From: Acidimicrobiales bacterium
GTDB lineage: Bacteria > Actinomycetota > Acidimicrobiia > Acidimicrobiales > JAVJTC01
Assembly: GCA_040219085.1 (NCBI GenBank)
Contig: JAVJTC010000038.1
Span: 16,199-80,198 of the forward strand
Reading direction: 5' to 3'
DNA length: 64,000 nucleotides
Positions 8,495-13,595 of this stretch are shown piece by piece. A model generated the notes under the pieces. It was not told the origin of the DNA and ran no database searches. It worked only from the letters and a program-made list of their open reading frames with translations. The first letter of the stretch is position 1, and each line of letters begins with the position of its first letter. Made by a program: the position numbers and the translations under genes.

Positions 8495-9178
8495 TCAGCT
8501 GCCGCGGACGCGGGACAGGTGGGCCCGCACCGTGTCCAGATAGTCGGTGCGCAGGTCCCGGCGGCTCGCGGCCGTGGATGACGGGTGCACTCTTCGCCGC
8601 AGGACGATCTCGTCGATGTCGATCTCGGTCAGCCCGAACTCGCGTGCCCGGGTGAACCAGTCGACGAACTCGCCCGTTCGCAGAGACGGGTCGAACGGGC
8701 CGACCAGGTCGAAGTCGCCGCGTCGCAGAAGGATCCCGCCCGCGAGCAGACCGCGGGTGGGCGTGGGATCGAACTCGAGCGCATCGTGTTCGCCGAAGTG
8801 TTCGACGAGACCGACGGCCACGGACGGCCCGGGCACGCCGGTGAGCGCCCGGGCGAGTTGTTCCGTGCGGTCCGGCGGCCAGATGTCGTCGGCGTCGAGG
8901 AACGCGATCCATTCACGGTCACACGCGTCGAGTCCGGTGTTGCGGGCGGCGGCGATCCCCCCGTTCGATTCGCGTCGCAGGTACCGCACGCGTTGATCGT
9001 CGAGGGCGACGACGACGTCCGCTGTGTCGTCGTCGCCGGCGTCGTCGACCACGGTGACCCTCACGTCTGCGCCTCGCTGCGCGAGTGCCGATCGGAGTGC
9101 GGCGGTGATCGTGTCCGCACGGTTGTAGGCGGCCATCACGACGTCGAGAGTGACGGGTCCGGGTCGGGCGGTGGTCAC
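8495..9178 (-). CDS. Glycosyltransferase family 2
   Basis: GT-A motifs VVMAAYNRADTI, VVDDAGDDDT and DxD FLDADDIW. The GTG start overlaps the upstream stop (GTGA). Confidence 0.85.
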   Translation of the reverse strand: MTTARPGPVTLDVVMAAYNRADTITAALRSALAQRGADVRVTVVDDAGDDDTADVVVALDDQRVRYLRRESNGGIAAARNTGLDACDREWIAFLDADDIWPPDRTEQLARALTGVPGPSVAVGLVEHFGEHDALEFDPTPTRGLLAGGILLRRGDFDLVGPFDPSLRTGEFVDWFTRAREFGLTEIDIDEIVLRRRVHPSSTAASRRDLRTDYLDTVRAHLSRVRGS

Positions 9179-9903
9179 GGGTCGATCCTCTCTCCGAGGC
9201 CGCGTGCCGAGCGGGCGGCGGCCGCGGCCCTGATCACCTCGAGCAGTTCCGCGTTGTGTTGGCGGGTCATCGCCGAGAGGTTCTGGTCATGGACACGCCG
9301 GTGGAGAACGACCTCGTCGAGCACCACGATCTCCACGTCGGCCATCTTCACGCGCGCGAACCAGTCGACGTCGTCGCCACCGTTGCGCTTCGTCGCGTCG
9401 AACGTCCCGACCCGTTCGAAGACCCGGCGGCGGACGAGGGCCGCGCTGAGGAACCAGGCGGGGTGCGCTGACTCCCCCCAACGCTGCTGGAACCACGCGG
9501 GTACCTCGATCCCGGGCTCGACGAAGTGCTCGACGTGGCCGAGTACGAGGTCGCACCCGGTCTGCTCCAGCGCCGCGATCTGTAGGGCCAGCTTGTCCGG
9601 CGCCCACAGGTCGTCGTGATCACAGAATGCGATCAGGTCGTGGCGCGCTGCGGCGAGACCGGTGTTGCGCGCTGCGGCGACACCACGGTTCTCCGTGTGA
9701 CTCACGAGCTCCACGGGGGTGCCGCCGGCCTTCATCTCCCTCACGATGTCGGCGGACCCATCAGGGGAGGCGTCGTCGACGACGATGATCTGGAGGGTCA
9801 CGTGGGGTTGGGCCGCGATGCTGTCGATGGTCGCGGCGATATGGCGTGCCCCCGAGTAGGTCGGGATGACGACGCTCACTGCGTGGTCGATCGGAGCGTT
9901 CAC
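9175..9903 (-). CDS. Glycosyltransferase family 2
   Basis: Only the last 242 codons of the 704-aa ORF are protein-like: VSVVIPTYSGARHI, IVVDDASPDGS and DxD FCDHDDLW. GTG at 9903 overlaps the stop of the kinase-like gene (GTGA). Confidence 0.85.
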   Translation of the reverse strand: MNAPIDHAVSVVIPTYSGARHIAATIDSIAAQPHVTLQIIVVDDASPDGSADIVREMKAGGTPVELVSHTENRGVAAARNTGLAAARHDLIAFCDHDDLWAPDKLALQIAALEQTGCDLVLGHVEHFVEPGIEVPAWFQQRWGESAHPAWFLSAALVRRRVFERVGTFDATKRNGGDDVDWFARVKMADVEIVVLDEVVLHRRVHDQNLSAMTRQHNAELLEVIRAAAAARSARGLGERIDP

Positions 9904-10979
9904 GCTCTGGCTCCGTGGGTCGCCCGGGTCACTTCGTCGAGTAGGGCGTCGATCAGCGCGGCCGTGGCGGGGAGGTCGCGCGGCGGCCTGACCTCGTAAC
10001 AGGGGACGTTCTGTGCGAGCCGGGTGATGAAGCGCATCGAGGCGTCGTGTTCGTAGGGCGTCTGCGCGATCGTCGACGGCGCTGCGGCCATGACCGCGGC
10101 GATCGGAGACGTAGGGGCGTGGCCGGGAGGCTGCCCGGAGCGTGGGAGTGACACTACGGCGATGGCACGCACCGCCATCTCCGTGGCGAAGGCAGAGGAC
10201 CGCGCGGCGTGGAGTTCGTGGATTGCTGTGAGGTTGGACACAGTGGTGCGCCGGGGCGCGCCCTCGAGGAGAGCGTCGGCGCGCACCGCCGCGTCGAGTC
10301 GGGTCTTCACGACCCCGTAGATGGGGCGCGCGACGTGAGTTCCGTCCTCGTCGGGGGCGACGTGGGTGTAGTCGTCCCCGCATGTCGCCATCCCTGCGGC
10401 CACGCCGGCGAGCGTGGTTGTCGACTTGCCCGCCCCGGAGTTGCCGAGAAGCAGCACGGCGCCGCGCTCGTCGCCCACACAGCCGGCATGGACCATCGCG
10501 TGGCCGAGCGAGGTGGAGAGCCAGTGGATGTGCATCCGGAACGGTTGCGACGATTCCCATTCCGGTAGTTCGCCGGCGGCGGCGACGAACCCGCTGCGGC
10601 CGTCGAGCGACATCGCCGTGATCAGCCCGTGGTGGCCGTCCCACACGAGGCGGTGCCGGCTGGCCTGGATCGACTGGCGCAGGGACCGTCCGGGCTGCGC
10701 CCAGGCGGGGTCGGGCGGATCCACCAGAGACGCGAGATGCTCGACGGTGGTCGCGTGGACGGTCATGGAGACGTGTGCGCCCGCGCCGCTCGCCGGCAGT
10801 AGCGAACGTAGTGGAGGCCCCCAGGGCGACGCGTGGTGCACGAACATCGTCAGGTCGTAGGGGCCGGGGCGCCACGTCGCCTGGTTCCAGCCCCGTTCGG
10901 CTTCGAGGCGGGCCGTGGCGGCGTCGATCCACCCGCCGAGGGGGCCGCCGCCGGTCAGCTGCCGGGCGCCTTGGGCCAT
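9900..10979 (-). CDS. HPr kinase/phosphorylase-like P-loop protein (HprK-related kinase)
   Basis: VHAGCVGDERGAVLLLGNSGAGKSTTTLAG matches the HprK C-terminal-domain Walker A context. 359 aa. The ATG overlaps the PqqD-like gene end by 25 nt. Confidence 0.75.
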   Translation of the reverse strand: MAQGARQLTGGGPLGGWIDAATARLEAERGWNQATWRPGPYDLTMFVHHASPWGPPLRSLLPASGAGAHVSMTVHATTVEHLASLVDPPDPAWAQPGRSLRQSIQASRHRLVWDGHHGLITAMSLDGRSGFVAAAGELPEWESSQPFRMHIHWLSTSLGHAMVHAGCVGDERGAVLLLGNSGAGKSTTTLAGVAAGMATCGDDYTHVAPDEDGTHVARPIYGVVKTRLDAAVRADALLEGAPRRTTVSNLTAIHELHAARSSAFATEMAVRAIAVVSLPRSGQPPGHAPTSPIAAVMAAAPSTIAQTPYEHDASMRFITRLAQNVPCYEVRPPRDLPATAALIDALLDEVTRATHGARA

Positions 10980-11311
10980 CCGAACGTCTCATCGACGTCG
11001 TGGATCGGGTCGAGAGCGAGCAGGTCCTCCATGTCGGCGAACCGTTCGAAGCCGAGCTGTGTGCCGTCCCATGCTTCGACCTGTTCGGCCTCGGCCGGAC
11101 CGGAGCGCGTGCGCAGCAGACCCTCTTCGATGAGCGCGCCGACGAAGCGGTCGAGAGCGGCGGGGTCGCTGCCCTCGGCGAGGAGCGACCGGGGGGTCGC
11201 TCCGTCCAGGAGGCTCTGCCACACGGCGCCGGTCGCCCCGGTGAGCGAGTAGTAGATGCCCGAGTTGAGATCGATGGCGATGGCTTCACCGTCGACGAGG
11301 TCTGCGATCAC
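10955..11311 (-). CDS. PqqD-family (RRE-type) peptide-binding/chaperone protein
   Basis: VIADLVDGEAIAIDLNSGIYYSLTGATGAVWQSLLDG is a textbook PqqD/RRE core. The GTG at 11311 overlaps the stop of a 14-codon upstream ORF. The true N-terminus may be that ORF (see findings). Confidence 0.75.
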   Translation of the reverse strand: MIADLVDGEAIAIDLNSGIYYSLTGATGAVWQSLLDGATPRSLLAEGSDPAALDRFVGALIEEGLLRTRSGPAEAEQVEAWDGTQLGFERFADMEDLLALDPIHDVDETFGWPKAPGS

Positions 11312-11352
11312 CGGGGGTTGTTCAGTTCGTAGCGATCGTCGAGTTGCGACAT
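11308..11352 (-). other. 14-codon upstream ORF MSQLDDRYELNNPR, or the displaced N-terminus of the PqqD-like gene
   Basis: ATG at 11352 is preceded by GGGAGG with a 10-nt spacer. The TGA overlaps the GTG of the PqqD ORF (GTGA). The sequence ends in a C5 run where a 1-nt insertion would fuse the two frames. Confidence 0.5.
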
Positions 11353-11362
11353 CAGGTGGGGG

Positions 11363-11400
11363 CCTCCCTGCCGTCCTTGCCTGTCCTTGCTTGTCCCTGC
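11363..11400 (-). repeat. Four tandem purine-rich ~10-nt repeats in the GT1/upstream-ORF spacer
   Basis: The mRNA sense reads GCAGGGACAA GCAAGGACAG GCAAGGACGG CAGGGAGG. Each unit has an A(A/G)GGA core, and the last one doubles as the SD for the ATG at 11352. Confidence 0.7.
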
Positions 11401-11403
11401 GTG

Positions 11404-12537
11404 TCAGTTCCGCGCGCGGCATCTCTCCGTGGCCAGGTCCAGGAACCCGACCATGGCCTGAAGGTAGGCGTCGTCGCCGTACTGGTCGGTGATGGACGAG
11501 TGGGAAGCGGCCGAGAGCATCCGCCACGCGTCGTCGTCGGTGCAGAGGTGGGTCACGCCGGCTGCGAAGTCCTCGGCGTTGTCAGCCTCGATCACCCGGG
11601 GCCGCCCGTCGGAGGTGGTCACGTCGACGCCCTCGAGCCCGACCGAGGTCGACACGACGGGGATCCCACGGTGCATCGCCGCGACGACCTTGCGCTTCAC
11701 GCCTGCGCCCCATCGCACCGGTGCCACCGAGACGCGTACCTGCGACATGAGGGATTCGAGCGAGTCGTCGTCGAGCATCCCGGTGTAGGTCACCCCGTCC
11801 AGTTCATGGCGGCGGTGGGCCGGCCAGTCGCCGATGACCGTGAGGGTGGTGTCAGGGAGATCCCGGCGGATCAGCGGAAGGATGGTCGCACCGAACCAGG
11901 CGACGGCGTCGTCGTTGGGTGCGTGGGCCGCTGCGCCGACGAACGCGCAACCGCTGCGGCCCTCGGGCGACGGGGCGGGCCCCTCGCCGAGCCGGTAGAT
12001 GGGCACGGCGAGTGCACTTCCCGGGGCGCCCAGGATGCGGTCGACGTGGTCGGCCTCGTTCTGCGAGGGGTAGATGGAGACGTCGTAGTGGCGCCAACAG
12101 CGTCGTTCGACCGCGGTCATCGCGAGAATGGCCGGCCTCCCCATCGAGGATCCGAAGCTGACGCCCCGCTCCATGCGGGCGGCGTGGAGGTCGTGGCCGA
12201 ACAACACGCGCGCTGTTGCGGGGCTCGTCTCGAGCAGGTCCAGGTACAGGGCCCCGGTCCCGGGACGCGAGACGATCGCGAGGTCCGGTGGGTTCGCCTC
12301 GAACCATTCCGCAAGACCCTCGGGGCCTTCTCCGACGTGGCCGACGAGGCGCTCGACGACGGCGGGGTCCACATCGGGGACCATGGTGTCAGCGTCGAAT
12401 CCCTCCGGGAAGCGGTCGGGGTAGAAGGCGACGTCGTGTCCCAGGTCCACCAGGCCCGACACGAGGTCGCTGATCGCCCGGTCCCCGGCGTTGTGATGCG
12501 GGCGCGGTACGGACTGGTCGATGACGAGTACGTTCAT
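11404..12537 (-). CDS. Glycosyltransferase family 1 (GT-B, GT4-like)
   Basis: Starts MNVLVIDQSVPRPHHNAGDRAI, which is typical of a GT-B N-terminus. C-terminal VKRKVVAAMHRGIPVVSTSVGLEG. The internal ATG at 12537 was chosen over the longer ORF. Confidence 0.8.
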   Translation of the reverse strand: MNVLVIDQSVPRPHHNAGDRAISDLVSGLVDLGHDVAFYPDRFPEGFDADTMVPDVDPAVVERLVGHVGEGPEGLAEWFEANPPDLAIVSRPGTGALYLDLLETSPATARVLFGHDLHAARMERGVSFGSSMGRPAILAMTAVERRCWRHYDVSIYPSQNEADHVDRILGAPGSALAVPIYRLGEGPAPSPEGRSGCAFVGAAAHAPNDDAVAWFGATILPLIRRDLPDTTLTVIGDWPAHRRHELDGVTYTGMLDDDSLESLMSQVRVSVAPVRWGAGVKRKVVAAMHRGIPVVSTSVGLEGVDVTTSDGRPRVIEADNAEDFAAGVTHLCTDDDAWRMLSAASHSSITDQYGDDAYLQAMVGFLDLATERCRARN

Positions 12538-12680
12538 ACGCGTCGAGATGGAGTGCGTGGGCGGTGGGGCGACATCGCGGCAACCGTAGCTTGCGGCACC
12601 GTCCCGGCGGCATTGTCCGGCGGACACTGCACTTCGGGGCGGTACTGCCGATAGATGAGCTACCAGGAAGGTGGTGCCGC

Positions 12681-13595
12681 GTGGGTCTCACGGGCATGAA
12701 GGTCGACTCGGATGAGCTCGAGCCCTCGGCGTGGCGGTCCTTCGCGTTCGAGAACCTCCCCTCTCCGGCGGTCGTGTTGAACGGCGAGGGGACGATCGTC
12801 GCCGTCAACGAGGCGTGGACGGTGTTCTCGCTTCTGAACGGCGGTGATCCCGAGACGTCCGGCGTCGGCGCGAGCTATCTCGGCGTCTGTGACGTGGCCG
12901 CCTCCGATGTCGACGATGCGAGCGCGGTGGGCGTGGGGATCCGGCGACTTCTCGAAGGTGACATCGAGCGCTTCGAGCACGAGTACCCCTGTCACTCGCC
13001 CCACGAGGACCGGTGGTTCCTGCTGCAGGCCTCTGCGCTCCACGACGCCACCGGCGTCGTGTTGTTCCACGTCAACATCACAGGCCGCAAGATGCTCGAG
13101 GACCGGTTGGCCCGCGAGGTGGAGCTCGACACCCTGACAGGTCTCGCCAACCGCCGTGGTGTGATGTCCCACCTCAGCGATGTGCTGGGCCGGGACACCG
13201 ACCTCGACGGTGCGGTGACCGTGTTCTTCGCGGACCTCGACCGGTTCAAGCCCGTCAACGACCGCCTCGGCCACGCCTCCGGGGACGAGTTGTTGGCCGC
13301 CGTGGGTCGACGACTCCGCCGGATCGCCCGTGAGGGCGTCGATCTCGTCGGCCGCCTGGGTGGCGACGAGTTCGTGGTGATCCTCGCCGGCCTCGCCGAG
13401 GACGACGTCGACATGGTGGTCGAGCGGATGCGCATCTCGATCGAGTCGCCTTTCCAGTTGGGCGACCGCGCGGTCACCGTCGGGGTGTCGATCGGCGTGG
13501 TCCGCAGCTCGCCCACCGCGACGGCCGAGAGCCTGCTCGAGAAGGCCGACGCGGCGATGTACGCCGACAAGAAATCGCGCAACGCCGGTCGTTGA
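12681..13595 (+). CDS. PAS domain-containing diguanylate cyclase (GGDEF)
   Basis: PAS-like AVVLNGEGTIVAVNEAWTVF. GGDEF domain LTGLANRRG, FFADLDRFKPVNDRLGHASGDELL and RLGGDEFVVIL. GTG at 12681 follows AGGAAGG. Confidence 0.85.
   Translation: MGLTGMKVDSDELEPSAWRSFAFENLPSPAVVLNGEGTIVAVNEAWTVFSLLNGGDPETSGVGASYLGVCDVAASDVDDASAVGVGIRRLLEGDIERFEHEYPCHSPHEDRWFLLQASALHDATGVVLFHVNITGRKMLEDRLAREVELDTLTGLANRRGVMSHLSDVLGRDTDLDGAVTVFFADLDRFKPVNDRLGHASGDELLAAVGRRLRRIAREGVDLVGRLGGDEFVVILAGLAEDDVDMVVERMRISIESPFQLGDRAVTVGVSIGVVRSSPTATAESLLEKADAAMYADKKSRNAGR

Follow-up and report, generated by a model that had tools for sequence, protein, structure and literature searches.

How does a gene begin when the ribosome-binding site in front of it serves an ATG in another reading frame? 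The question is raised by a small PqqD-like gene on the minus strand of a 64,000-nucleotide stretch of an Acidimicrobiales contig (the window, to which all coordinates refer; G+C content 67%). In GenBank the gene is called from a GTG at 11311–11309 as an ORF of 118 codons ending at 10955 (RIE08_15835; MEQ8719080.1), with the product name 'MAG: hypothetical protein RIE08_15835 [Acidimicrobiales bacterium]'. No Shine-Dalgarno (SD) sequence is found upstream of this GTG. A ribosome-binding candidate, GGGAGG, can be read directly at 11368–11363, where it aligns with the AGGAGG/GAGGAGG of orthologous loci; it is followed by a 10-nt spacer, CCCCCACCTG, and by an ATG at 11352–11350. The frame opened by this ATG continues with TCG CAA CTC GAC GAT CGC TAC GAA CTG and closes with AAC AAC CCC CGG TGA, so that its 14 codons read MSQLDDRYELNNPR before a TGA at 11310–11308. 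This stop overlaps the GTG of the PqqD-like ORF, the two sharing a GTGA at 11308–11311, and a run of five Cs lies just ahead of it (11317–11313; G5 on the plus strand). The distance from ATG to GTG is 41 nt (3×13+2), and the GTG frame is therefore −1 relative to the ATG frame: the two can be joined by one inserted base or by a −1 slip. Other possible starts for the 118-aa frame, an ATG at 11422 and a GTG at 11527, were rejected, as they lie inside the 3′ end of the upstream GT4 gene, have no SD at a usable distance and would extend the protein by residues without homology.

All of these elements, from the GGGAGG-N10-ATG and its different frame to the overlapping TGA and the C5 run, had been described in a first-pass annotation and are confirmed in the sequence. 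That annotation offered three accounts of them, namely an assembly error in the homopolymer, a genuine frame break (either a pseudogene or a programmed frameshift), and a real micro-ORF, coupled to the PqqD-like gene and encoding a leader or substrate peptide.

The relatives of the gene allow these accounts to be told apart. A search with the frame-repaired protein, to which one C had been restored, found 63 relatives, and in five close ones the protein is a single contiguous chain of 132–135 aa with an N-terminus of the form MSQLDDRYELNNPPVIADL or MSLLDDHYELNNPPVIADL. P0002 and P0003, both of 132 aa, are 81% and 82% identical to the repaired protein with 100% query coverage, and P0004 (135 aa) is 63% identical. 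The nearest contiguous orthologue, P0064, has 132 aa, belongs to the window protein's own 90%-identity cluster and begins MSQLDDRYELNNPPVIADLVDGEAIAIDL. Adding one C to the C5 run gives a translation whose first 58 residues are identical to the N-terminus of P0064, and over the whole length only 5 of 132 residues differ. The N-terminal extension is present in every family member of the protein alignment, and the agreement between the ATG-frame peptide and the orthologue N-terminus is, as a sequence match, far beyond chance.

At the DNA level the difference can be located to a single base. Loci L001–L003, from three independent runs, and L006 read AAC AAC CCC CCG GTG, i.e., six Cs in frame, while L004 has CCT CCG and L005 has CCG CCT at the same site, both also in frame. 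The SD and ATG of L001–L006 align with those of the window, which has exactly one C fewer in the run. Over 2.6 kb, L006 shares 91.4% identity with the window, and the alignment contains only three gaps: a 20-nt difference in an intergenic repeat, one base in the SD–ATG spacer, and the C-run deletion, which is the sole indel within coding sequence. Whether encoded by C6, CCTCCG or CCGCCT, the orthologous proteins read ...YELNNPPVIADLVDGEAIAIDL... across the break, which bears out the earlier proposal that one extra base in the run would yield a typical PqqD N-terminus. With that base restored the gene extends from 11352 to 10955 on the minus strand and has 132 codons plus a stop; the ancestral C6 encodes Pro13-Pro14 (CCC CCG), and the GTGA at the break corresponds to the native codons GTG-ATC for Val15-Ile16. 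What is left in the first frame (11308–11352) is then the native start, residues 1–13, one out-of-frame codon and a stop.

The same continuity holds far beyond the close relatives. A scan of one genome per species gave at least 545 loci, in which the closest relatives are at most 49% identical, and 80 of them (L008–L087) were kept for analysis. In each of the 80, which come from many phyla, there is a single in-frame tblastn segment that starts at query residue 1–11, upstream of the break. Taken with the five close loci, 85 of 85 read through the break position in one frame, and contiguity of the N-terminus in orthologous loci, which the first-pass annotation had suggested looking for, is thus the rule. 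The severed piece also holds a family motif, [YF]8-x-[ILV]10-N11-x-P13, with an aromatic residue at position 8 in 64/72, an aliphatic one at position 10 in 70/77, Asn11 in 61/80 and Pro13 in 76/80. Family members differ at residue 14, the second proline, whose codon completes the C6 run, and so the homopolymer is best seen as a clade-specific accident of Pro-Pro coding.

Could the 14 codons nevertheless be a separately evolved upstream ORF, coupled by its GTGA and supplying the cluster with a leader or substrate peptide? The strong SD and ATG would suit such an ORF, the annotated protein does start at the GTG, and the overlap resembles two native junctions of the same operon, where GTGA stop/start overlaps join the HprK-like gene to the first of two GT2 genes (9903–9900, minus strand) and the first GT2 gene to the second (9178–9175, minus strand). 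However, its codons are colinear with residues 1–13 of the contiguous orthologues and identical or near-identical to them, its motif is conserved within the PqqD-like protein across all 80 genome loci and coincides with a predicted strand of the fold, and no related locus has a separate micro-ORF. Nor does any of the 85 related loci start at the GTG; orthologues that consistently did so, with no ATG upstream, had been named in advance as grounds for refutation. Because the orthologues are contiguous and the severed piece carries the family motif, the 14-codon ORF is, on these sequence comparisons, the PqqD-like gene's own N-terminus, conserved as such in 85/85 loci. The orthologue alignments rule out the leader or substrate peptide, and we regard a separately evolved ORF as barely credible. 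The in-frame orthologues L001–L004 and L006 already have a GTGAT at this position, so the GTGA at the break is a by-product of the deletion rather than an evolved signal. Its resemblance to the two native junctions explains both why the gene caller chose the GTG and why a coupled ORF was suspected.

How firmly the protein can be called PqqD-like depends on the level of comparison. On a single sequence the assignment is weak: against Pfam PF05402 the window protein, repaired or truncated, scores 13.5–13.7 bits with a cutoff of 23.4, and no specific NCBIfam model matches it. Most relatives do have a precomputed PF05402 match (L055 at 49.5 bits), and a profile of the family finds the solved RRE proteins of lasso-peptide pathways, TbiB1 with E=5.7e-17, 9X90_B with 2.9e-11 and TfuB1 with 8e-7. 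The TfuB1 profile alignment reaches into the severed N-terminal segment, pairing 'Yevn-kp' with 'FRL-RPE'. The AF2 model of the repaired protein (mean pLDDT 83) places an N-terminal beta-strand at residues 8–10, with pLDDT about 89–90 for residues 1–20, followed by a core of strands 15–20, 23–28 and 34–37 and helices 40–49, 54–57 and 64–76. This is the three-stranded sheet followed by three helices of a winged-helix-like fold, and the only Foldseek matches with probability of at least 0.99 are TbiB1 (PDB 5V1V/5V1U) and TfuB1 (6JX3), which have the same three strands and then three helices; the target-normalised TM is 0.64–0.69 over 82–89 columns for targets of 83–88 residues. The PqqD/RRE-like label is thus solid at the level of profile and predicted fold, in agreement with what had first been read from the sequence. 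Unlike the lasso RREs, the family has an additional C-terminal region of about 45 residues with an invariant tail, and its partners are HprK-like proteins and GT2 glycosyltransferases, whereas those in lasso systems are a cyclase and a protease. According to the model, the 118-aa remainder would keep the three core RRE strands, the helices and the invariant tail, and would be without the conserved N-terminal strand.

For the frame break itself, the main alternatives are a real deletion and an artefact of the assembly. Looking up the neighbouring HprK-like protein by exact match led to a Logan contig, SRR26147846_14098 (38 kb), which over 7,080 bp shows 100.000% identity with the window, C5 included; the contig runs uninterrupted through the C run and receives the same 118-aa gene call, although the GenBank MAG and the Logan assembly may share reads, in which case a low-coverage or systematic error would show in both. 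In the window, 121 G/C runs have 5 bases or more and 22 of these have 6 or more, and no broken gene was found at any of the other 120 in its 64 kb. The remaining same-strand ORF junctions among its approximately 55 genes all have normal stop/start arrangements, and hence the data are not prone to homopolymer errors. The second read-based assembly with C5 and the lack of other broken G/C runs make a real deletion likelier than an error.

The competing possibility is that the organism's 132-codon gene is intact, with C6, and that the consensus lost one C, whether by low coverage, by systematic homopolymer error or by collapse of a mixed C5/C6 population. It is true that the break falls in a homopolymer of a MAG, that the sequence is supported by one sample only, and that the repaired gene is perfect, with its first 58 residues those of P0064 and with no sign of decay. 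Against this stand the identical C5 obtained by the independent Logan pipeline in an uninterrupted 38-kb contig, the unbroken genes at the other 120 runs, and the fact that a C6 variant of the strain's protein is missing from the protein collection, where the 90%-identity cluster has just two members. The strain is carried by one sample only (SRR26147846). Exact look-ups of P0001, the 118-aa product, and of the GT4 protein returned no further same-strain samples from an index that is incomplete, since both genes are listed on Logan contig L007, and a DNA pattern tolerant of C5 or C6 together with a protein-guided scan found no close relatives in JGI metagenomes. Weighing these points, we think it probable that the sequenced DNA contains a genuine and recent one-base deletion, which is the major or only allele of the population, and we leave a modest share of the probability to the artefact. 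Of the accounts given initially, then, the genuine frame break is the most probable, the coupled leader falls, the programmed frameshift finds no support, and the assembly error is disfavoured by the C5 of the second assembly.

The state of the rest of the gene bears on the age of the lesion. No further lesions were found in the PqqD-like gene, the 14 N-terminal codons differ from those of L006 by one synonymous and no non-synonymous change, and dN/dS against L006, taken over the entire gene, is 0.27, a value based on 11 differences, which are too few to discriminate as a test of pseudogene age and fit an artefact equally well. With no other damage, this dN/dS and intact N-terminal codons, the lesion, if real, is probably recent. 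It is an ordinary kind of lesion: in slipped-strand homopolymer indels and the pseudogenes they create, one C or G unit is likewise lost from a coding run and truncation is immediate in a gene that is otherwise intact. Compared with known homopolymer frameshift alleles, the tract is short, going only from 6 to 5 bases, and it is not conserved among relatives.

A further question is whether the two frames could be joined, or switched, by design. Homopolymer phase variation is classically associated with glycosyltransferase clusters, and Actinobacteria are known to have reversible poly-C frameshifts, for example in the 7C tract of M. tuberculosis glpK. A slippery motif does lie exactly at the frame junction, a C_CC.C at 11317–11314, which is a tetramer and not a heptamer; tRNA-Pro can re-pair perfectly on it one base back, and the shifted frame would yield exactly the wild-type protein, Pro-Pro included. 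A slip of +1 on CCC-C can be dismissed, since it leads into the third frame (GDRRPRRR, then a stop) and not into the PqqD frame. In E. coli, C_CC.C is among six tetramers that respond to a stimulator, and it does so only upon addition of a pseudoknot; unstimulated tetramers of this kind shift at approximately 0.15% compared with a background of 0.11% (PMC4066793).

No such stimulator, whether a hairpin, a pseudoknot or an upstream SD-like element, was found around the C5 run. Downstream structure is absent (fold z=−0.77; 44 of 200 shuffles fold as well), there is no internal SD upstream, and no Rfam family was found around the junction, so that a shift at this site would be expected to stay near the unstimulated 0.15% against 0.11% (PMC4066793). 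The −1 sites of dnaX and IS3/IS911 (Z_ZZ.N, X_XX.Z_ZZ.N; PMC4066793) share with this one a slippery motif exactly at the frame junction and differ from it in having the heptamer, the hairpin or pseudoknot, the SD-like stimulator and the conservation that are lacking here. In addition, none of the 85 loci needs a shift, and the homopolymer is missing altogether from two close relatives (CCTCCG, CCGCCT). Programmed −1 frameshifting is thus unlikely.

A related possibility is a phase-variable C tract controlling the PqqD–HprK–GT2 cassette. A contingency locus would be expected to maintain a long tract, but the run is C5 here, C6 in two lineages (L001–L003 and L006) and interrupted in two more, i.e., short and not conserved, and C5 is the only state on record for this strain. 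Taken together, we consider functional recoding or switching at this site improbable. Equally little probability goes to the idea that C5 is both real and used, either as one side of a C6/C5 toggle that would reversibly switch the cassette on and off or attenuate it, or as the source of a working 118-aa RRE made by reinitiation at the GTGA, with the 14-mer possibly supplying its strand in trans.

For the preferred reading, a recent deletion, the following course can be proposed. A clade-specific C6 tract, coding for Pro13-Pro14 of the PqqD/RRE gene (10955–11352, minus strand), would have lost one C. Initiation would still take place at the native GGGAGG-N10-ATG, and ribosomes would translate residues 1–13 correctly; after residue 13 they would be out of frame and meet at once the TGA hidden in GTG ATC (Val15-Ile16). 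This embedded TGA would come into frame only through the deletion and would then mimic a GTGA-coupled micro-ORF. The lesion would leave the gene null or hypomorphic. Three further consequences are drawn from general knowledge of translation: termination and reinitiation at the GTGA, as at the native GTGA junctions, may yield a 118-aa protein without its N-terminal strand; unstimulated −1 slippage of tRNA-Pro on C_CCC may yield a trace (about 0.1%) of full-length protein; and translation of the overlapping HprK-like gene may drop.

In terms of annotation, MEQ8719080.1, the 118-aa hypothetical protein with a GTG start, should be a frameshifted 132-codon gene of the PqqD family, and RiPP mining of this MAG should not take the 14-codon ORF for a precursor or leader peptide. 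More generally, a one-base deletion beside an out-of-frame TGA can mimic a GTGA-coupled junction and mislead gene callers. If the lesion is real, a chaperone-like component of the conserved glycosyltransferase cassette is broken or hypomorphic in this population, which would be nothing unusual as recent gene inactivations go. The widespread and uncharacterised cassette itself, with its invariant C-terminal motif, is more interesting than the frameshift.

GC3 frame analysis and Pfam delineate a minus-strand operon of a GT4 gene, the PqqD-like gene, an HprK-related gene and two GT2 genes. The first encodes a GT4-family glycosyltransferase of 377 aa (11404–12537; Pfam Glyco_trans_1_4, E=4e-19; gene call on L007), and no promoter or terminator was found between it and the PqqD-like gene. 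Downstream follow the HprK-related protein of 359 aa (9900–10979; weak NCBIfam match to HprK_rel_A, E=3e-5) and the pair of GT2 glycosyltransferases (9175–9903 and 8495–9178; Pfam Glycos_transf_2, E=1e-33 and E=3e-29). The HprK-like gene starts before the PqqD-like ORF has ended: its ATG falls within GGA-TGG-CCC, which encodes the invariant GWP motif, and the two genes overlap by 25 nt (10955–10979, minus strand). L001–L004 show this 25-nt overlap too, and in L005 the genes overlap by a GTGA. The arrangement suggests tight translational coupling of the two proteins, and judging from the gene layout the HprK-like gene is probably translationally coupled to the PqqD-like gene.

The HprK_rel_A and HprK_rel_B families are known to accompany a PqqD-family partner, and in their bioinformatically defined neighbourhoods (TIGR04352 and TIGR04355) a small PqqD-like gene lies directly upstream of the HprK-like one, as it does here. 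However, the HprK-like protein of the window matches the TIGR04352 and TIGR04355 models weakly, with 23 bits against a cutoff of 200. These weak scores, together with the lack of an NCBIfam match for the PqqD-like protein, indicate a related but distinct, uncharacterised cassette. In most of the 80 loci the HprK-like gene comes after the PqqD-like one, and the order PqqD-like, HprK-like, one to three GT2 genes is kept in at least 545 species-level genomes from Actinomycetota, Chloroflexota, Cyanobacteria, Proteobacteria, Bacteroidota and others. The cassette of Planktothrix PCC 11201 (L055:3514–9791) has, in addition, an SDR and a PF14907 nucleotidyltransferase, and a nucleotidyltransferase is likewise part of the HprK-related neighbourhoods just mentioned. 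Neither in the window operon nor in L055 was a gene for a precursor peptide, a protease or a cyclase recognised, and from gene content a RiPP cluster is unproven. Nothing specific to a PqqD-like/HprK-like/GT2 cassette was found in the literature searched.

The most conserved part of the PqqD-like protein lies outside the RRE fold, in a C-terminal tail of the form DM..LL.LDPIH[DE]V...GWP (10955–11050, minus strand; residues ~100–127 of the repaired protein). Residues D107, M108, L114, D115, P116 and H118 are identical in 80/80 genome loci, and G125, W126 and P127 in 79/79. The tail has low pLDDT in the AF2 model, and no published description of it was found. It may serve to dock the HprK-like or GT2 partners, or might even be a substrate segment.

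On the other side of the GT4 gene, and divergent from the glycosyltransferase operon, lies a gene for a PAS-GGDEF diguanylate cyclase (12564–13595, plus strand), which adjoins the GT4 gene on L006 and L007 too. Its position may point to a regulatory link between c-di-GMP and the cassette.

The short region between the GT4 gene and the start site has also changed in length. From the GT4 stop to the SD, the spacer is occupied by a tandem repeat with a 10-nt unit of approximately GCAAGGACRG (minus strand; 4.2 copies, 84% matches, 11365–11405), and in the 91%-identical L006 it is 20 nt, or two units, shorter. A second C run, at 11358–11362 in the SD–ATG spacer, is C5 in the window and C4 in L006, and L001–L003 have three bases fewer in this stretch. 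These spacer differences suggest that variation in homopolymer length is common around the start site between lineages.
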